UHGV virus genome: UHGV-0151101
DNA length: 11,233 nt
Source: a virus
Reading direction: 5' to 3' (one strand)
Of the stretch, positions 617 through 10,690 are shown one piece after another (the stretch's first letter is position 1; the number at the start of each line of letters is the position of its first letter). The notes beneath the pieces are model-generated. The model made no database searches. It was not told the DNA's origin and saw only the letters and a list, made by a program, of their open reading frames with translations. The position numbers were made by a program, and so were the translations under genes.

Positions 617-1138
617 TCAGCACGCGATATCGAGAGTCAACTGCAGTTGCTCGCGCCAGTACTCAACATTTGCTTCAATAACCGGCTTATCCCATCGCCA
701 GCGAGCCATCTCTCTTGCCCCATTGCTGGCTTTTGATTTCCGGTCATCGCGAATGCGACATGCTTGCTCATATTTCTGCTGCTCAGTCAGTTCACCGCGA
801 AGCAGACTATCAATGTGCAGGTCGCACCACACAGCAAAACGAGCATCACACCAACGGGCAAATGCAACTGAAAGTTTTGGATGTAGCCACGTACCACCAC
901 CCCTGTCCTTTCGTGCCTTGCTGGTTTTTACATACCTCGATTGTGAGGGATGTAAAATTTGAGATTCTTTCCCGGTCAACGCTTCGTCTAAAGCACGAAC
1001 GTATTCAAGCGTTTCTGCCAAACGCATCCAGTTATCAATGCGTTTTCCAAATCTCTCAGCAACACCTGTGACGTTGATCCAACCATCAGTGTTGAAACTG
1101 ACAATTTCACCTTTGTAATTAAGTGGCACGATATTCAT
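617..1138 (-). CDS. KilA-N domain protein (173 aa), accessory gene downstream of the lysis cassette
   Basis: Complete ORF. N-terminal motifs DGWINVTGVAERFGKRIDNWMRL and GGGTWLHPKLSVAFARWCDARFAVWC fit the KilA-N DNA-binding domain pattern as I recall it. Lies after an intrinsic terminator that follows Rz. Upstream ribosome-binding site is weak. Confidence 0.65.
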   Translation of the reverse strand: MNIVPLNYKGEIVSFNTDGWINVTGVAERFGKRIDNWMRLAETLEYVRALDEALTGKESQILHPSQSRYVKTSKARKDRGGGTWLHPKLSVAFARWCDARFAVWCDLHIDSLLRGELTEQQKYEQACRIRDDRKSKASNGAREMARWRWDKPVIEANVEYWREQLQLTLDIAC

Positions 1139-2557: not shown

Positions 2558-2994
2558 GTCTTACCCCCAATAAGGGGATTTGCTCTATTTAATTAGGAAT
2601 AAGGTCGATTACTGATAGAACAAATCCAGGCTACTGTGTTTAGTAATCAGATTTGTTCGTGACCGATATGCACGGGCAAAACGGCATGAGGTTGTTAGCG
2701 CAACCTCCTGCCACCGCTTTCACGAAGGTCATATGTAGAAGGCCGCAGCATAACTATCACTGATGAGTTCAGGATAGCCAGTGGCTACGGCTCAGTTTGG
2801 ATTGTGGCGACCGGTGCTGATCTCCGGTTTGCTGCAACTGCCTACAGCGGGCTACGTGGCCACACCGAATCCAGCGAAAGATTCTTGCCCTTACACATCA
2901 GCCTGTGCATTCACCACAACGGAAAGAGCACTGGCTAACCAGGCTCGCCGACTCTTCACGATTATCGACTCAATGCTCTTACCTGTTGTGCAAA

Positions 2995-3082
2995 CAAAAA
3001 AAGCCACCGTTGCAACTTAAGAGTCACTAACGGCAGCTTATGCGAATAGTGTTGCTCATTTGCTCAATGATGTCAACACGTT
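2995..3082 (-). promoter_or_regulatory. Late promoter and terminated leader (pR'/qut/tR'-like) immediately downstream of Q
   Basis: On the - strand a TTGACA -35 hexamer (+ coordinates 3071-3076) sits just after the Q stop, with no clean -10. An imperfect hairpin spans 3002-3038 and is followed by a T7 run (+ strand A-run 2996-3002). Sequence from about 2560 to 2990 resembles the lambda region between tR' and S as I recall it. Confidence 0.4.
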
Positions 3083-3571
3083 CTATGCTACATGTTTAAT
3101 TTTCTCTACACGTTTCCGGGTTTTAAACGCACTATCCAGAACCGGGTAAATCATAAACAACGAAGCATTGAGGATTTCGTCAACTTCCCGGCGACAGGTT
3201 GCGAACGATGGTTTTTGAATACGCCCGCCGCCCCGGCATAACATCTTGCGAGGTCTTGCGACACGATGATAGTAAGATGCAATGGCATGCTTGGAAGATC
3301 CATGAGCGTAGTAGCTGAGGAGGATGCCAAAGGCTTTCTTGTCAATGTACATGACGGAATCGACGACCTGAGAAATCAACATTCCATCATCATCATTACA
3401 CATTGGCCTTGTCATAACTCTTCCCGGCTCTACGCTCTCCATGAACTTAGCTATTACGCTGCTCATGCGCTTTTCCAGACGACCTGAATAAACCCATGCG
3501 CCCCACAGTTCAAGCCAGCCATTCAGCCAATCGTGCTGTTCTTTGGTGAGGTTTAGTTCTCTTATGCTCAT
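3083..3571 (-). CDS. Q: Late-gene antiterminator Q, 162 aa, not the lambda Q type
   Basis: Position between ninH and the lysis cassette. Size and Cys-containing basic segment KMLCRGGGRIQKPSFATCRREVDEIL are consistent with the short Q family of phage 21 as I recall it. Start overlaps the ninH stop (ATGA). Confidence 0.75.
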   Translation of the reverse strand: MSIRELNLTKEQHDWLNGWLELWGAWVYSGRLEKRMSSVIAKFMESVEPGRVMTRPMCNDDDGMLISQVVDSVMYIDKKAFGILLSYYAHGSSKHAIASYYHRVARPRKMLCRGGGRIQKPSFATCRREVDEILNASLFMIYPVLDSAFKTRKRVEKIKHVA

Positions 3572-3756
3572 CGTCTTCCCCTCTTGCCCTGTTTGACCAT
3601 CAGGACGCCGTTAACTATTACGTGACGCTCGCCTTTGCTGTCTCGGTTGTACTTGAGCACTGTTCCTCTTGCGCAGGAAAGCATCCTCGCCACTTCGGTC
3701 TGATTGCCTCGTGTCTGGATAAGAAGCTCTGGTATCGTTTGAATTGTGGCGTTCAT
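3568..3756 (-). CDS. ninH: NinH, 62 aa
   Basis: TIPELLIQTRGNQTEVARMLSCARGTVLKY matches lambda NinH (TIPDMLVEAYGNQTEVARRLKCSRGTVRKY as recalled). Conserved position just upstream of Q. Confidence 0.85.
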   Translation of the reverse strand: MNATIQTIPELLIQTRGNQTEVARMLSCARGTVLKYNRDSKGERHVIVNGVLMVKQGKRGRR

Positions 3757-4115
3757 ACGTTCTCCAGTTCAGTGATTTTTATTCCAAGCCTTCCGCCTGG
3801 TACTTTCACACCACGAATTACGCGAATGTCATCGAATTGCTCGTCGTCTTCCGCAAATCCGGCGTGGATAAGGGAGTCGAGTAAACCCTTCAGGATGTTA
3901 TCGAGGTCGCGGCGGCGGGAGTCTGGAACGTCTGCGATGACTTTGATGCGGAGTCGTGATTTGGTGAAAATATCTAACTTGAGTTGGTGGATGATTTGCT
4001 GAACGTCTTTTCGGTATTTCTGGCCTTTATCGCTGATGTAGTATTGGCTTCCCCGTCTTCGCCAGTAGGTATTCACCGACGGCGGGTATGGAAGCACAAA
4101 CTGATATTCGTTCAT
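3753..4115 (-). CDS. rusA: RusA-family Holliday junction resolvase, 120 aa
   Basis: PYPPSVNTYWRRRGSQYYISDKGQKYRKDV and DVPDSRRRDLDNILKGLLDSL match RusA motifs as recalled. Occupies the lambda ninG position. Confidence 0.9.
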   Translation of the reverse strand: MNEYQFVLPYPPSVNTYWRRRGSQYYISDKGQKYRKDVQQIIHQLKLDIFTKSRLRIKVIADVPDSRRRDLDNILKGLLDSLIHAGFAEDDEQFDDIRVIRGVKVPGGRLGIKITELENV

Positions 4116-4402
4116 GACTTAATCTTCCCCTCCTTCAGCAGTATCGCCTGCGTCCTGATCACGCCTTCGAGGTGGTAAAGTCTGGCGTCTTTGTTGTCGA
4201 GGTTATGGGTGCGTCGGTCGATTTCATCGTGACACGCGCTACAAGCCCATGCGCCGATCAGGTCGTCAGGCTTCATTCCCGTTCCGCAAATTCCAGCCAT
4301 CCGGTAATGTGCCAGAACTGTAGTTTCAGGATTACCATTGCATACGCCGTAAATACGTACCTGGCATTCTCTGCCGCGCGCTTCTTTGCGTAGGTTAGCC
4401 AT
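4112..4402 (-). CDS. DUF1364 / YbcO-like protein, 96 aa, Cys-rich putative nuclease
   Basis: 96 aa with Cys/His cluster CQVRIYGVCNG...AGICGTG...WACSACHDEID. Size and position upstream of rusA as for YbcO of prophage DLP12, from memory. Confidence 0.65.
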   Translation of the reverse strand: MANLRKEARGRECQVRIYGVCNGNPETTVLAHYRMAGICGTGMKPDDLIGAWACSACHDEIDRRTHNLDNKDARLYHLEGVIRTQAILLKEGKIKS

Positions 4403-4671
4403 TATGGTTCACTCCAGTAATTCTCAATTGCAGCAGCCATTCTCTGCATCCACTCAGCCAGCTTTAACGCGGCTTCTCTTTCAGAACCACATTTAGGGAA
4501 ATCCTTCATTTCCATGCTGGCCTTATATGTTCTGAATGCCAGGTCTCCGGTAATAACCAACTCCTGATCAAGCACCGAGCGTTTATTCCGGTGTTGAACG
4601 TAATAGACAGATTCAGTCCGCATTTCTTCTCTGTCTTTTTTGAAGGAAATAAGCTCAGAGAAATCACTCAT
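4402..4671 (-). CDS. Hypothetical nin-region protein, 89 aa
   Basis: Complete ORF translationally coupled on both sides: its start overlaps the ninF stop and its stop overlaps the YbcO-like start (TAATG). I recognise no homolog. Confidence 0.55.
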   Translation of the reverse strand: MSDFSELISFKKDREEMRTESVYYVQHRNKRSVLDQELVITGDLAFRTYKASMEMKDFPKCGSEREAALKLAEWMQRMAAAIENYWSEP

Positions 4672-4840
4672 CGTCTTCTTCCTCGTACATTGAGCTATTC
4701 GGATCGCTCATCAGTTCTGCGCAGCAATCGGAGCACACGTGAACTTCCAGCACATGCAGCTTCTGACCGCAGTTAGCGCACGTTAAAGCCCGCTCGACGC
4801 TTTCTTTCTGGTATTGAATGGATTGGGATTGGCTAAGCAT
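4664..4840 (-). CDS. ninF: NinF, 58 aa (below the supplied ORF-track size cutoff)
   Basis: Translated by hand: MLSQSQSIQYQKESVERALTCANCGQKLHVLEVHVCSDCCAELMSDPNSSMYEEEDDE, matching lambda NinF as recalled. Start overlaps the NinX-like stop. Confidence 0.8.
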   Translation of the reverse strand: MLSQSQSIQYQKESVERALTCANCGQKLHVLEVHVCSDCCAELMSDPNSSMYEEEDDE

Positions 4841-5195
4841 TATTAGCGACCTGCATCATTAGAAATACAATCATGGCTGCGCGGAGAGGCGATTCACCGC
4901 AGAAGCAGTAGTCAGGAACCCAACAACCTTCCTCTAAATCACCTCCTGACCATGCGCACCATTCTTTTTCCGCCGTCATCCACATAGTGCTGATTTTGTT
5001 TTCAGTGATGATCGGATATGCGTCAGCGGCCCTATTACATGGGTCGAAATATCCACAAGGCAAAAACTCACCACCATCAATTCCAGCCAAGCAAACTTCT
5101 TTCTTTTCTGGATCCCAGTCGTAATTGTTTTTTCCTAGCACGATATGCGCGATTTTTAAGTTAATTTCAAAATCACTTAACTGTGAATAATCCAT
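4833..5195 (-). CDS. NinX-like protein, about 120 aa; the ORF track's upstream start at 5237 is less likely
   Basis: Sits between ninE and ninF, the position of ninX in the P22 nin region as I recall it. Start chosen at the ATG of MDYSQLSDF, which has GAGGA 7 nt upstream and lies 2 nt after the ninE stop. Name is by position only. Confidence 0.5.
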   Translation of the reverse strand: MDYSQLSDFEINLKIAHIVLGKNNYDWDPEKKEVCLAGIDGGEFLPCGYFDPCNRAADAYPIITENKISTMWMTAEKEWCAWSGGDLEEGCWVPDYCFCGESPLRAAMIVFLMMQVANNA

Positions 5196-5197
5196 TG

Positions 5198-5374
5198 TCA
5201 TTTCCTCGCACGATGTCTTAGCCACCGGATATCCCACAGGTGAGCCGTGTAGTTGAAGGTTTTTACGTCAGATTCTTTTGGGATTGGCTTGCGTTTATTT
5301 CTGGAGCGTTTCGTTGGAAGGTATTTGCAGTTTTCGCAGATTATGTCGGTGATACTTCGTCGCTGTCTCGCCAC
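5198..5374 (-). CDS. ninE: NinE, 58 aa, GTG start
   Basis: Hand translation (M)[57 protein letters not shown] matches lambda NinE as recalled. AAGGAGG lies 4 nt upstream of the GTG. Overlaps the ninD 3' end by 34 nt, as in lambda. Confidence 0.75.
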
Positions 5375-5514
5375 ACGTCCTCCTTTTCCTGCGGTAGTGG
5401 TAACACCCCTGTTGGTGTTCTTTCACACCGGAGACACCATCGATTCCAGTAAGGTTGATTTGGTCGGAAGCGGTTATCTTCTTTGCATTCACCGCACCGA
5501 TAACATCGCATCAT
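5341..5514 (-). CDS. ninD: NinD, 57 aa, Cys-rich zinc-ribbon-like
   Basis: [34 protein letters not shown]... Start ATG overlaps the ninB stop (ATGA). Size equals lambda NinD (57 aa); called by size and position. Confidence 0.7.
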
Positions 5515-5951
5515 GCTGCCCGGTCTCCCCATCGCGATTTCCACTCCAGAGCCAGTCGCGCTTCGTCTGACCACTTAACGCCACGTTCTGTACCGAATGC
5601 CTGTATAAGCTCTAATAGCTCCGCAAATTCGCTTACACGCATCCTGCTGGTTGACTGGCCTATTACCACAAAGCCATTCCCGGCAAGGTTAGGAACAACA
5701 TCCTGCTGCTTTAATGCTGCGGTAAACACACACTTCCAGCTTTCTGCATCCAGCCAGCGACCATGCCATTCAACCTGACGAGAGACGTCACCAAGGCAAG
5801 CCCAAAGCTTTCGGTTTTGGTCTAAGCTGCGGTTGCGTTCCTGAATGGTTACTACGATTGGTTTGGTTGGGTCTGGAAGAATTTGCTGTACCGCGTGAAT
5901 AGCATTTTGCTGATGTGCTGGAGATCGAATTTCAAAGGTTAGCTTTTTCAT
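5511..5951 (-). CDS. ninB: NinB recombination protein, 146 aa
   Basis: [76 protein letters not shown]... is near-identical to lambda NinB as recalled. True start is the internal Met at 5951, not the track start at 5969. Confidence 0.9.
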
Positions 5952-5966
5952 GACTTCCCTCTCCCC

Positions 5967-5999
5967 CAAATAAAAAGGCCTGCGATTACCAGCAGGCCT
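5967..5999 (-). terminator. tR2-like intrinsic terminator between the helicase gene and ninB
   Basis: Perfect 8-bp stem AGGCCTGC / GCAGGCCT (5976-5983 and 5992-5999) with 8-nt loop, followed on the - strand by TTTTTATTT. This is where lambda tR2 sits. Confidence 0.6.
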
Positions 6000-6024: not shown

Positions 6025-7401
6025 TCATACGTCAGCCCCTTGTGCATATCGTCTGCCACGCGCAGCAGGTGCATTTGATGTTGTGCAAATCTGTCTGGCT
6101 TCATCCTGGTCACATGCAACAAAGTGTCCGTTGCAGAACCGCTGGTAAACCGTACCAAGCGAGCCAAAACGGTTTTTCGTCACAATGATTTCAGCAAATG
6201 GCGCGGCGCTACTGTTCTCGTCATATACCGCCTCCCGATAGAGCATGATGATTGAGTCTGCGTCCTGTTCAATGCTTCCTGAATCACGCAAATCTGCGTT
6301 TGTCGGGCGTTTATTTGGTCGCTTCTCAACATCGCGCGAAAGCTGACTCAGGGAGATTACTGGCGTTTTCAGGTCTTTCGCCATCGCCTTCAGGCTTCCG
6401 GAGATGTGAGCAATTGCGAGGTCGTTGCGATCTGCTTTCGGCTTCTCAATCAGGCCAAGATAATCCGCCATGATGAGTGAGAGGTTTGGATTTTCCTGTT
6501 TGTGCCGTTCTGCGATTGAGCGTATTTCTTCGACCGATAACCGCGAGGCATCGACCACCCATACATCCAAATCTGCAAGCTGACTCATTCCGTTAGCAAC
6601 ACGTGCCCAGCCCTCGTCATCCATCGATGCAGGATTTCGCAGTACGCTAACCGACATCCTCCCGGCGTTGGCAATGCTTCGCTCTGCGATCTGCAATGCG
6701 CTCATTTCCATCGAGAAAATCAACACTCCGCGCCGGACGTCAGAACCAGGAATAACGCGGCTTGCAACGCCTTCGGCAATCTTCAGCGCCAGTTCGGTTT
6801 TCCCCATACCAGGACGAGCAGCGATTATCACCAGGTCTTCCGCGTTCATCCCTCCGGTGATGGCATCAAGTTCTTCGATTCCGGTCTTCAGGGTATCTGA
6901 CTCTTCTCCGTTCCTCAGACGCCTGTCAAGCGTGTCAGTGTAGTCGGTGATGATTTCCCCTAACCGTACCGGTTTAACCTCGTCACGTGGCTTTCTGATG
7001 GCTGAAAGACGCTTTACAAGTTCATCCATCGCCTGACTCGATGCGTCGATGGTTCCGCTCTGAATTGGTTCACGCATTTCATCCATGATTTCCAGCACCA
7101 GACGGCGGTGATAGTTATCCGCGACCATTCCGGCATATCCCTTCAGGTTTGCGGCACTCGGGCAGTTTTTGCTGGTCATCAGGATTGACGTGAAATGCTC
7201 CTCTCCGCACGCCTCGGCAACCATCAGCGCGTCGATTAGGTTTCTGTTTCTCGCCTGCTTGCGGATAACCTCGAAGGCTTTCCGGTAGAGCGGAATTGAA
7301 AACGCTTCCGGCTCCAGCGTTGCCAGAACGTCACTGGCAGTTGGTGTTAATCCACCAATCAGCAAGCCACCGATAACGCTCGCTTCGATATCCTGTCTCA
7401 T
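6025..7401 (-). CDS. Replicative DNA helicase, DnaB family, 458 aa
   Basis: Walker [16 protein letters not shown] and helicase motifs ([15 protein letters not shown]). Resembles the phage-encoded DnaB-type helicase of P22 (gene 12) by recall. Start overlaps the O-like stop. Confidence 0.9.
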
Positions 7402-8219
7402 GCAATCCCCCTGTCTGCAAACTTCCCTTCCCGTACTCCCGTTAACGAATCTTCCCTCAGCAGGTAATCAAAATCTGCCGTCCAGCCAGTGTCGTTGTCT
7501 CCGAAGTAAAACGGCTTGGCCTGATGCACAAACGCCCTGACATACGCTCTGAAACCGTCCACGTTTGGCGTTTTCAGTTGCGGGATGATTTTCTTCAGGC
7601 GGCGTTTGCGTTTCTCGTTGACCGCAACAGCGTGTGGCAGTCTGTCACCGACTTCGGTGTTGTAGGCGTTCAGGAAGGATTCATAGTCGATTCGTTCTGC
7701 CTTGCGACGTTCAGGTTTAACCTGCCCATCGCCGCCCCCGTTAGGGGGTAAGGGGGTATTTGTATTTATTGTCTTTTGTATATTGTCTTTTGTGTTTAGC
7801 TGACTTGGCTTATACCCATTAGCCGACTTGGCTAATGTTTTATTAGCTGTTTTAGCTAATGTTAAGCTGTCCTGGCTAATCCACTGAGAAACCACCTTGT
7901 TCACTCCGATTTTCACGCCATCAGCAATGAGGAATTTACGCTCGATAAGCTGGCGCTTGGCAGCGCAAACATGAGTGTGATGAATACCTGTCATGGCTGC
8001 TATCTGCGTGTTTGTGAGTCGATCCATCGGCTTATTGAATCCGTATGTCTTGCGCATGATAGCGAGCATCACCTTCAACTGCCGGACGGTTAAATCAGCC
8101 ATCAGCAGACTGTCGGTAATCTCGTTAGCAACGCGCATGAAACCATCTTCGGTATCTGCCACGCGATGCTCCACGACCTCCAGTTGAGGCCTGTAATCAG
8201 CTAACTTAACGACGCCCAT
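7398..8219 (-). CDS. Replication initiator, lambda O-like, 273 aa, with the origin inside the gene
   Basis: Position after cII. N-terminal DNA-binding region, central low-complexity linker ([47 protein letters not shown]) encoded by iteron DNA, C-terminal domain. GGAG lies 7 nt upstream of the start. Confidence 0.85.
7756..7880. repeat. Replication origin: four ~19-bp iterons plus an adjacent AT-rich tract
   Basis: Iterons at about 7796-7814, 7819-7837, 7843-7861 and 7862-7880 (TTAGCTGACTTGGCT, TTAGCCGACTTGGCTAATG, TTAGCTGTTTTAGCTAATG, TTAAGCTGTCCTGGCTAAT). AT-rich 7757-7795 holds a 12-bp direct repeat ATTGTCTTTTGT at 7768-7779 and 7782-7793. Same layout as lambda ori inside O. Confidence 0.65.
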
Positions 8220-9077: not shown

Positions 9078-9728
9078 ATGAATACACAACTGATGGGTGA
9101 GCGTATTCGCGCTCGCAGAAAAGAACTCAAGATTAGGCAGGCTGCCCTTGGCAAGATGGTTGGCGTGTCTAATGTTGCTATTTCCCAATGGGAGCGATCT
9201 GAAACTGAGCCCAATGGCGAAAACCTATTGGCCTTAGCCAAGGCTTTGCAGTGCTCCCCTGATTACCTGTTGAAAGGAGAGGATAGTCTTTCAAACATTG
9301 CCTATCACAGCAGGCATGATCCAAGAGGTTCGTATCCTCTAATTAGTTGGGTAAGCGCAGGATGTTGGATGGAAGCTGTAGAGCCATATCATAGGCGTGC
9401 AATAGATAACTGGTACGACACAACGGTAGATTGTTCTGAAGACTCTTTTTGGCTCGACGTTAAAGGCGATTCAATGACTGCCCCGGCAGGACTGAGTATT
9501 CCTGAGGGGATGATTATTCTCGTCGACCCAGAAGTCGAACCACGTAATGGAAAGCTGGTAGTCGCCAAACTTGAAGGAGAAAACGAGGCGACATTCAAAA
9601 AGTTAGTTATTGATGCCGGTAGAAAATTCCTGAAACCACTCAATCCACAATACCCAATGATTGAAATCAATGGGAACTGTAAAATCATTGGCGTTGTCGT
9701 TGATGCCAAGCTAGCAAACCTTCCTTAA
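9078..9728 (+). CDS. c2: Prophage repressor, 216 aa, P22 c2 type (cI family, LexA-like autocleavage domain)
   Basis: MNTQLMGERIRARRKELKIRQAALGKMVGVSNVAISQWERSETEPNGENLLALAKALQCSPDYLLKG... and the C-terminal peptidase-like domain (GDSM...K) match P22 c2 as recalled. Confidence 0.95.
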   Translation: MNTQLMGERIRARRKELKIRQAALGKMVGVSNVAISQWERSETEPNGENLLALAKALQCSPDYLLKGEDSLSNIAYHSRHDPRGSYPLISWVSAGCWMEAVEPYHRRAIDNWYDTTVDCSEDSFWLDVKGDSMTAPAGLSIPEGMIILVDPEVEPRNGKLVVAKLEGENEATFKKLVIDAGRKFLKPLNPQYPMIEINGNCKIIGVVVDAKLANLP

Positions 9729-9933: not shown

Positions 9934-10043
9934 CCAGAACTTGAGTGGTTTTGGGGATGGCGCGAATTGCAGCTGCAAGACAGCGATCGAGAAGATAAGC
10001 ACCTCGACGCGTCATGCGCCAAAGCCACTTAAAGGAGACCATC

Positions 10044-10349
10044 ATGGTAACCATTGTCTGGAAAGAATCCAAAGGTACGGCAAAAAGCCGCTACAAAGCT
10101 CGCAGAGCAGAACTTATTGCCGAGCGACGCAGTAATGAAGCACTGGCGCGAAAAATTGCGCTAAAGCTCTCTGGTTGCGTCAGAGCAGACAAAGCAGCAT
10201 CACTAGGAAGCCTTTGCTGCAAGAAGAAAGAAGAAGTCGTTCGAAAAAATAGAAGTATTTATTACAAAGATTCAAACCCATTAGGAAACAAAATACATGC
10301 AGTCCAAAAAATAAAATTGTACAGTAAACTACCGTACGGTGCTTATTGA
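10044..10349 (+). CDS. N: N-like early antiterminator, 101 aa, phage-21-type arginine-rich motif
   Basis: N-terminal GTAKSRYKARRAELIAERR matches the phage 21 N boxB-binding peptide as I recall it. AAAGGAGA ribosome-binding site 6 nt upstream of the ATG at 10044. Follows PL and nutL. Confidence 0.8.
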   Translation: MVTIVWKESKGTAKSRYKARRAELIAERRSNEALARKIALKLSGCVRADKAASLGSLCCKKKEEVVRKNRSIYYKDSNPLGNKIHAVQKIKLYSKLPYGAY

Positions 10350-10351
10350 GT

Positions 10352-10690
10352 ATGCTTATGGTGAAAAAGACTATTTATGTTAATCCTGACCGCGGACAAA
10401 ACAGAAAAGTATCTGATAGAGGTCTTACATCTCGAGACAGGAGGAGAATAGCGAGATGGGAAAAAAGGATAGCATATGCATTAAAAAACGGTGTAACACC
10501 TGGATTTAATGCTATAGATGACGGTCCTGAATATAAGATTAATGAAGAACCAATGGACAAAGTTGACAAAGCATTAGCAACACCATTTCCTCGCGATGTC
10601 GAAAAAATTGAAGATGAAAAATATGAGGATGTAATGCACAGAGTTGTTAATCACGCTCACCAACGAAATCCAAATAAAAAATGGTCATAG
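10352..10690 (+). CDS. Hypothetical protein, about 112 aa, in an AT-rich segment immediately downstream of N
   Basis: Complete ORF beginning 3 nt after the N stop (start ATG at 10352 or 10358 uncertain). Basic N-terminal half, acidic C-terminal half. Followed by a strong intrinsic terminator. No homolog recognised. Confidence 0.5.
   Translation: MLMVKKTIYVNPDRGQNRKVSDRGLTSRDRRRIARWEKRIAYALKNGVTPGFNAIDDGPEYKINEEPMDKVDKALATPFPRDVEKIEDEKYEDVMHRVVNHAHQRNPNKKWS

Follow-up and report, generated by a model that had tools for sequence, protein, structure and literature searches.

What are the two small genes that lie within the nin region of UHGV virus genome UHGV-0151101, and do they make this region unusual? 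The window, by which we mean the whole stretch of 11,233 nucleotides that was analyzed, carries on its minus strand a gene for a 120-residue protein of the NinX family (4833-5195), located between ninE and ninF, and a gene for an 89-residue protein, here called p89 (4402-4671), located between ninF and the YbcO gene. An earlier note, made from the sequence alone, had read both genes as substitutions that distinguish this nin region from that of lambda. Our answer, to which we assign a probability of roughly 85%, is that the window is a lambdoid PR operon in which NinX and p89 are gene-sized mosaic cassettes occupying two known variable slots of the nonessential nin region. The arrangement is not an unusual one, as the same order, ninE-NinX-ninF-p89-YbcO-rusA, is found at 96-100% identity in Salmonella phage SPN9CC and Escherichia phage phiv205-1, and p89 is also found in phages mEp235 and ECP1 and in 148 of 5426 complete E. 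coli genomes (full length in 147, at ≥95% identity). The annotation of SPN9CC itself reads ninE-ninX-ninF-hypothetical-HNH(YbcO)-rusA.

Cassette boundaries and variable slots

The ends of the two cassettes can be read from the positions where homology to related phages stops and resumes in blastn alignments. Homology to mEp235 and HK97 ends at 4806 and returns at 5201, right after the ninE stop codon. The NinX cassette is the segment at 4807-5200 (minus strand), which comprises NinX and the first ~11 codons of ninF and has no counterpart in HK97 or mEp235. Homology to HK97 also ends at 4404, at the p89 stop codon that overlaps the ybcO start, and returns at 4661, in the region of the ninF stop codon, and the p89 cassette proper is 4405-4660 (minus strand). 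Between these same two breaks, HK97 carries roi, an unrelated gene for a 242-residue protein. In phages without p89, matches begin at query positions 254-268, near the ninF stop codon (window position 4664). The NinX and p89 cassettes each have a guanine-plus-cytosine content of 43.3%, whereas the flanking nin genes have 47-53% and the whole window 47.6%, and the low values of both cassettes fit separate origins.

To describe how the slots are filled, we used a sample of 80 IMG/VR loci that carry p89 at 98-100% identity. In every locus of the sample that extends far enough, a ninF match precedes p89; NinX occurs in a minority of the loci (~28). The gene downstream of p89 could be read in 73 loci and is YbcO in 55 and a 203-residue open reading frame (ORF) in 18; one of the latter was scanned and is NinG (Pfam, expect value (E) 2.5e-90). 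NinG also stands beside p89 in the RefSeq annotation of some E. coli genomes. The full order ninB-ninD-ninE-NinX-ninF-p89-YbcO-rusA-ninH-Q was found in 3 of the 80 loci, and mEp235 has the order ninE-ninF-p89-YbcO-rusA, with no NinX. Between ninE and ninF, the slot contains NinX or nothing; the slot between ninF and the resolvase is occupied by p89 here and by roi in HK97 and is empty in P22, where ninF is followed by ninG; and the resolvase position is occupied by either NinG or YbcO plus rusA. Synteny across lambdoid nin regions, to which the earlier note had looked for a decision, thus shows NinX and p89 to be interchangeable cassettes of their slots. The swapping of cassettes in a mosaic nin region is a textbook feature of lambdoid phages.

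The same survey bears on the proposal that rusA and the DUF1364 protein (YbcO) take the place of ninG, and it agrees with that proposal in that the two occur as alternative cassettes at the ninG position. RusA and NinG/Rap are both branched-DNA endonucleases, and from these known activities and the pattern of alternation, NinG and YbcO plus rusA are probably functionally equivalent.

Absence from otherwise near-identical prophages had been pointed to as a sign against NinX and p89, and such absence was found, with NinX missing from HK97 and mEp235 and p89 replaced by roi in HK97. Being absent from related phages marks the two as dispensable cassettes and not as spurious genes. The nin region of lambda is dispensable for plaque formation (PMC10695390). 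By analogy, and given that there are related phages without each cassette, NinX and p89 are probably dispensable for plaque formation as well.

A partial copy of p89 is seen in E. coli NZ_CP148401.1, where only the last 58 nucleotides of the gene (5200923-5200980, 100% identical) are present, directly upstream of a DUF1364 gene. This fragment appears to be a remnant, or a scar left by recombination at the boundary of the slot.

Gene integrity and operon packing

Genes that come and go between related phages might be nonfunctional, and one explanation for the locus is that one or both ORFs are filler, arising by chance or decaying as remnants within the operon. This explanation draws on the absence of both genes from otherwise closely related phages, on the dispensability of the nin region, and on a rare p89 variant, P0021 (2 member sequences), whose N-terminus comes from another frame. 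However, p89 is intact in 83 of 83 copies (39 alleles) from the fetched IMG/VR loci, and its variant codons comprise 18 synonymous and 14 nonsynonymous overall and 8 synonymous to 1 nonsynonymous in residues 60-89, a pattern that shows purifying selection, strongest in the C-terminal helix. In addition, conservation in the p89 family extends to members only ~30% identical in phages of Enterobacterales; the match of NinX to a curated Pfam family is full-length, >800 homologues of NinX were found, and its fold model is confident; and plausible ribosome-binding sites lie ahead of both genes. Conservation of this kind effectively excludes spurious ORFs, and we give filler almost no chance of being correct. 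The claim of the earlier note that both genes are real is upheld by the intact p89 copies under purifying selection and by the many homologues of NinX.

The argument that had been offered for expression was a different one, namely the overlap of stop and start codons. The overlaps can be read directly from the sequence. The TAG of NinX and the ATG of ninF overlap by 8 nucleotides (ATGCTTAG), as do the TGA of ninF and the ATG of p89 (ATGAGTGA), while the TAA of p89 and the ATG of ybcO share 1 nucleotide (TAATG) and the TGA of ybcO overlaps the ATG of rusA as ATGA. The junction between ninE and NinX is ambiguous. If translation began at the ATG at 5201, which overlaps the ninE TGA (ATGA), NinX would have 122 residues; an ATG at 5195, which lies 2 nucleotides past the ninE stop codon and has better Shine-Dalgarno spacing (GAGGA, then 8 nucleotides), gives the 120-residue form. 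The 120-residue form is present in public databases, and the 122-residue form was not found there. Tight packing with ATGA overlaps is a general property of the nin region in lambdoid phages (PMC8022706), and so the overlaps indicate that NinX and p89 are built like their neighbors but are not special evidence for these two genes.

A scan of 4402-5195 found no promoter-like or terminator-like site. The mEp235 record annotates a promoter at the 3′ end of p89, a site that our scan did not accept. Judging from the gene order and from lambda biology, NinX and p89 would be transcribed from PR as delayed-early genes, through a tR2-like terminator under N antitermination, and would be translated in series with their neighbors by way of the overlapping or abutting stop and start codons.

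Families, predicted folds, and possible roles

The N-terminus of p89 is MSDFSELISFKKDREEMRTESVYYVQHRNKRS, which matches the sequence quoted in the earlier note, where the protein could not be placed. It belongs to PHROG 1258 (phrog_1258, E 4.7e-38, 130.4 bits), with residues 2-89 covering positions 9-97 of the 97-position profile, that is, its full length. The members of this family include mEp235 gp51 (YP_007111627), SPN9CC_0035, and E2348C_2523 of E. coli E2348/69, and more distantly N15 gp44, phiKO2 Gp43, and HK225 gp58. At least 1000 contigs carry the exact p89 sequence under the name "hypothetical protein" (UniProt A0A0C2DK22), and the E. coli copies bear the same name in the records listed. 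Its identity is 100% to the proteins of mEp235, ECP1, and phiv205-1 and 98% to those of SPN9CC and a dozen related Salmonella phages.

That p89 fits no characterized family is confirmed by searches of Pfam, NCBIfam, the PDB, and PADLOC, by Foldseek, and by profile searches. It has no Pfam match, and NCBIfam gave a single match at chance level (E 0.016, 15 bits against a cut-off of 236). The PADLOC defense models gave no match at E up to 0.1 to p89, NinX, or YbcO, and PDB sequences gave no match to the single p89 sequence and one chance match to the family profile (E 0.43). The family is small, as a HMMER scan of 1.84 billion representatives returned 67 clusters at E up to 0.001, none of them informative, and a profile search of 5.8 billion proteins returned 109 matches, none of which has a Pfam domain and every named one of which is hypothetical. 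The named matches are all from Enterobacterales (Escherichia, Shigella, Serratia, Providencia, Proteus, Morganella, Xenorhabdus, Cronobacter, Yokenella, Rahnella, Cedecea, and Enterobacter). Fused domains provide no usable functional hint: an Ead/Ea22 match occurs in 2 of 54 family representatives, and one protein in which a p89 homologue is joined to an N-terminal Rv2179c-like exonuclease fragment was judged to be a truncated or chimeric gene call. The locus tags and accession numbers of p89 are not mentioned in the literature searched, and a preprint on an accessory-gene screen does not mention nin genes. Nothing here suggests an enzyme, and with 89 residues and no match in Pfam, NCBIfam, PADLOC, or the PDB, p89 is probably not one. 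The family is already present in sequence records, and the real gap is that it has no Pfam entry, no name, no experimental data, and no convincing fold relative.

A homologue of p89 is labeled "portal protein" in the records of phiv205-1 (MN340231.1, 3001-3270) and Proteus phage 2207-N35 (MN840487.1). In phiv205-1, the label traces to a PHASTER-style note that cites Salmonella phage 118970_sal4. Because p89 is an 89-residue nin-region gene, it cannot be a portal protein; the label is a propagated mis-annotation, and it should not be trusted in either of these GenBank records. Salmonella phage 29485 (KY709687.1) has two members of the p89 family, at 4798-5064 and 17220-17465, one nearly identical to the p89 of the window and the other a distant paralogue that is ~37% identical to the sequence P0074.

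Conservation in p89 is greatest where the sheet ends and in the C-terminal helix (DFP-x4-S-x2-EAALKLAxW-x2-R). Among the 54 representatives, Q36, F58, K70, L71, W74, and R77 are nearly invariant, and S63 through A68 are among the further positions that are invariant in 12 closer relatives. In the AlphaFold2 (AF2) model, antiparallel strands at residues 4-13, 18-28, 33-43, and 48-55 are followed by one long helix at 64-87. Repeats of the PC4, PUR, and Whirly families have this same beta-beta-beta-beta-alpha order, which raises the question of whether p89 serves the nin recombination module as a small accessory protein that binds nucleic acid; as a dimer, it would form a PC4-, PUR-, or Whirly-like fold that binds single-stranded DNA and would aid NinB/Orf, YbcO, RusA, or NinG. 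In E. coli and Salmonella phages, p89 immediately precedes YbcO-rusA or NinG, a location that would suit such a role. We nevertheless think it unlikely, since a Foldseek search of viral models returned no family but that of p89 itself, no PC4, PUR, or Whirly member gave a significant superposition ranking above unrelated folds, and the family is mildly acidic and not basic (pI, the isoelectric point, is 5.4 for p89 and 5.5 for the family median, both whole-protein values). Moreover, HK97 fills the same slot with the unrelated roi, and distant p89 homologues show no linkage to a resolvase gene.

These distant homologues, which are 30-45% identical, are found elsewhere in early operons. Morganella prophages have the homologue upstream of ninF-YbcO-rusA or of NinG; in Proteus, it directly follows the DnaB helicase gene and precedes ninB; and in Serratia, it lies among ParB-like, DUF551, and MT-A70 genes. 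N15 (gp44), HK225 (gp58), and the P1-like phage-plasmid RCS47 carry it in arrays of small early genes, and an uncultured phage contig has it among ~25 small genes on the same strand, one neighbor of which weakly resembles Vibrio phage genes (e.g., JA-1). No p89 paralogues were found in the small-gene arrays of loci L088-L091. What the distant loci have in common is an early, nonessential, tightly packed accessory array. Outside E. coli and Salmonella, no neighbor of p89 is conserved in the homologue loci examined, which argues for an autonomous accessory function. Going by the model, p89 would be the type member of an uncharacterized family whose fold of four strands plus a helix has no recognizable relative and whose members found here are almost all from Enterobacterales.

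NinX was correctly assigned in the earlier note, both by family and by place. It matches PF10765 (NinX/DUF2591; E 9.5e-14, 52.1 bits against a cut-off of 22.6), with residues 2-115 covering positions 1-114 of the 114-position profile, and of the matches listed, 120 of 120 carry PF10765. Its position between ninE and ninF is that of P22 ninX, the order in P22 being ninE-ninX-ninF-ninG (PMC4837284). The exact 120-residue sequence is found on 49 public contigs, as "phage protein NinX family protein" or "DUF2591 family protein". No functional study of NinX/DUF2591 was found in the literature searched, where the term DUF2591 occurs in annotation tables only, and a match to a well-characterized family of known function, which had been considered for both genes, was found for neither.

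In the alignment of the NinX family, the conserved segments are an N-terminal MDYSxLSDFEIN, a central DPCNxPADAWPII, and a C-terminal PLRAAMIVFLMMQ, and conservation is concentrated in helices at 1-10, 51-70, and 101-110. The beta segments between them are variable and rich in insertions and deletions, and they occur in several discrete alternative versions. The NinX of the window is 92% identical to the nearest cluster representative and, compared with it, is shorter by the 4 residues WENN within the variable beta region near the C-terminus. Its N-terminal two-thirds resemble allele type P0092, and its C-terminal third, including the 4-residue gap, resembles P0094, so that the gene looks like an intragenic recombinant of two known allele types. 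The protein had been described as rich in Cys and Trp; C53 is the only cysteine that is nearly invariant, the others belonging to one variable submodule, and a Zn-binding or redox role is not supported at the level of the family.

The structure model of NinX is confident (predicted local distance difference test (pLDDT) 89.6, predicted template-modeling score (pTM) 0.84), and it resembles PDB 4PUP, an uncharacterized protein of Burkholderia cenocepacia, and 1R7L, a Bacillus cereus "phage protein", at sequence identities of 13-18%. No function has been assigned to either, and papers citing 1R7L or 4PUP contain nothing relevant to function. The model can be read as that of a DNA-associated protein, in which the conserved helices form a LEM/SAP-like helix-extended-helix and the C-terminal alpha-beta-alpha unit resembles a double-stranded-RNA-binding domain. 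We regard this as improbable, as the family is uniformly and strongly acidic (pI 4.05-5.2, median pI 4.3, median charge -11), which is a better fit to a protein binder or a DNA mimic, and the NinX profile has no sequence match to any solved structure in the PDB, 4PUP and 1R7L included. Structure prediction, which had been put forward for both proteins, gave a confident model for NinX and, for p89, a model of moderate confidence that has no convincing fold relative.

What, then, might the cassettes encode? At a little below even odds, NinX and p89 are both small, nonenzymatic binders of a host or phage protein that act in host take-over, counter-defense, or exclusion. For p89, binding would be through the strongly conserved amphipathic C-terminal helix, and for NinX through the conserved three-helix core, with the hypervariable beta insertions set on a very acidic surface. 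Several points weigh against this proposal. A role in protein binding is the default inference for any small, fast-swapping early phage gene; the nin genes that have been characterized, NinB/Orf, NinG/Rap, and RusA, act on DNA, which makes a nucleic-acid role possible by association; and the AF2 model of p89 is of moderate quality (pLDDT 79.6, pTM 0.57), with 12 fairly similar sequences as its input. A more specific version, which we consider doubtful, is that p89 (PHROG 1258) is a counter-defense or host-take-over effector whose C-terminal helix inhibits a specific host protein and that NinX is a second effector, in which case the hypervariable beta insertions of NinX would reflect an arms race with its target.

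The surrounding operon and related phages

The ORF list and a reading of the sequence identify the window as the early region of a lambdoid prophage, with the PR operon running leftward on the minus strand in the order O, P, terminator-like hairpin, ninB, ninD, ninE, NinX, ninF, p89, YbcO, rusA, ninH, and Q. Gene identities come from Pfam scans of the ten genes of the P-to-Q interval, together with PHROG profiles. Every gene that the earlier note had named is present where it had been placed, on the minus strand, and its list of nin genes was right as far as it went, with the presence of ninD and the absence of ninI left unmentioned.

On this strand, an O-like gene (7398-8219) is followed by P (6025-7401), which is of the DnaB type according to its translation and the annotations of matching records. 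Between P and ninB is a strong intrinsic terminator-like hairpin (5976-5999) with an 8-pair stem (6 G-C) and then a T-rich tail (TTTTATTTGG). It sits where lambda has tR2; a signal of this type renders the nin genes and Q that lie beyond it dependent on antitermination. Next come ninB (5511-5951; Pfam NinB E 1.1e-54), ninD (5341-5514; Pfam NinD E 4.9e-41), and ninE (5198-5374, 58 residues; Pfam NinE E 3.3e-45), the last of which forms the upstream border of the NinX slot. The gene between the two variable slots is the conserved ninF (4664-4840, 58 residues; Pfam NinF E 8.2e-14, phrog_672 E 6.3e-36). Beyond p89 are YbcO/DUF1364 (4112-4402, 96 residues; Pfam YbcO E 1.8e-44, phrog_131 E 1.2e-49), which some records name an HNH endonuclease, and the Holliday-junction resolvase gene rusA (3753-4115, 120 residues; Pfam RusA E 2.3e-16, phrog_34 E 2.2e-53), followed by ninH (3568-3756; Pfam NinH E 2e-24) and Q (3083-3571; Pfam Q E 1e-24). 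The absence of ninC that had been claimed agrees with the ORF list and the ten Pfam scans, in which neither NinC nor NinG nor NinI was seen in the P-to-Q interval, although no search was aimed at these three. The plus-strand ORFs at 4591-4776, 4987-5124, and 5018-5164 are antisense to conserved genes and were treated as chance ORFs; no homology search was made on them.

The lysis genes come after Q. The gap of ~500 bp between Q and the holin (2573-3083) has no transfer RNA (tRNA) gene and no Rfam match, nor does the window as a whole, whereas SPN9CC has two tRNAs there; the late promoter and Q-utilization site are presumably in this gap. Downstream of the Rz/Rz1 lysis genes, at another accessory-gene position, is a gene for a 173-residue KilA-N domain protein (617-1138, minus strand; Pfam E 8.2e-22). 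The immunity genes are at the right end of the window, with a LexA-family cI on the plus strand (9078-9728) and cro and cII on the minus strand. Beyond cI, the leftward operon has two plus-strand ORFs, at 10014-10349 (111 residues) and 10346-10690 (114 residues). The first has a weak, subthreshold match to an N antitermination peptide (E 0.0039, 18.1 bits against a cut-off of 27.9) and contains an arginine-rich motif (GTAKSRYKARRAELIAERR) that we take to resemble that of phage 21 N. The second has no Pfam match.

Public records of phages and bacteria already contain both proteins and their order. The arrangement is ordinary lambdoid mosaicism, sequenced many times before, and its value as a discovery is small. 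Its use lies elsewhere. The p89 family is common in E. coli and Salmonella prophages and has no name, which makes it a reasonable candidate for systematic accessory-gene screens, and the map of the slots supplies clean natural controls for deletion or swap experiments.

Compared with the lambda nin region (ren-ninB-ninC-ninD-ninE-ninF-ninG-ninH-ninI-Q), the region described here likewise lies between the replication genes and Q, has a tR2-like terminator upstream, consists of chained overlapping genes, and includes ninB, ninD, ninE, ninF, and ninH. It differs from lambda in that ninC, ninG, and ninI are not seen, YbcO plus rusA stand at the ninG position, and NinX and p89 are added; like P22 and HK97, it has a DnaB-type helicase for replication in place of lambda P. 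In HK97 and HK022, roi uses the same slot between ninF and ybcO as p89, with the same junction at the ybcO start codon, but it encodes 242 residues, is annotated in the HK97 record as an anti-repressor, and has no detectable homology to p89 between the junctions. The closest likenesses are in P22, to whose NinX family the gene of the window belongs by its full-length profile match and its position between ninE and ninF and whose three conserved segments it shares, and in the PHROG 1258 relatives of mEp235, SPN9CC, and phiv205-1, which have the same p89 neighbors, with ninF upstream and YbcO downstream.

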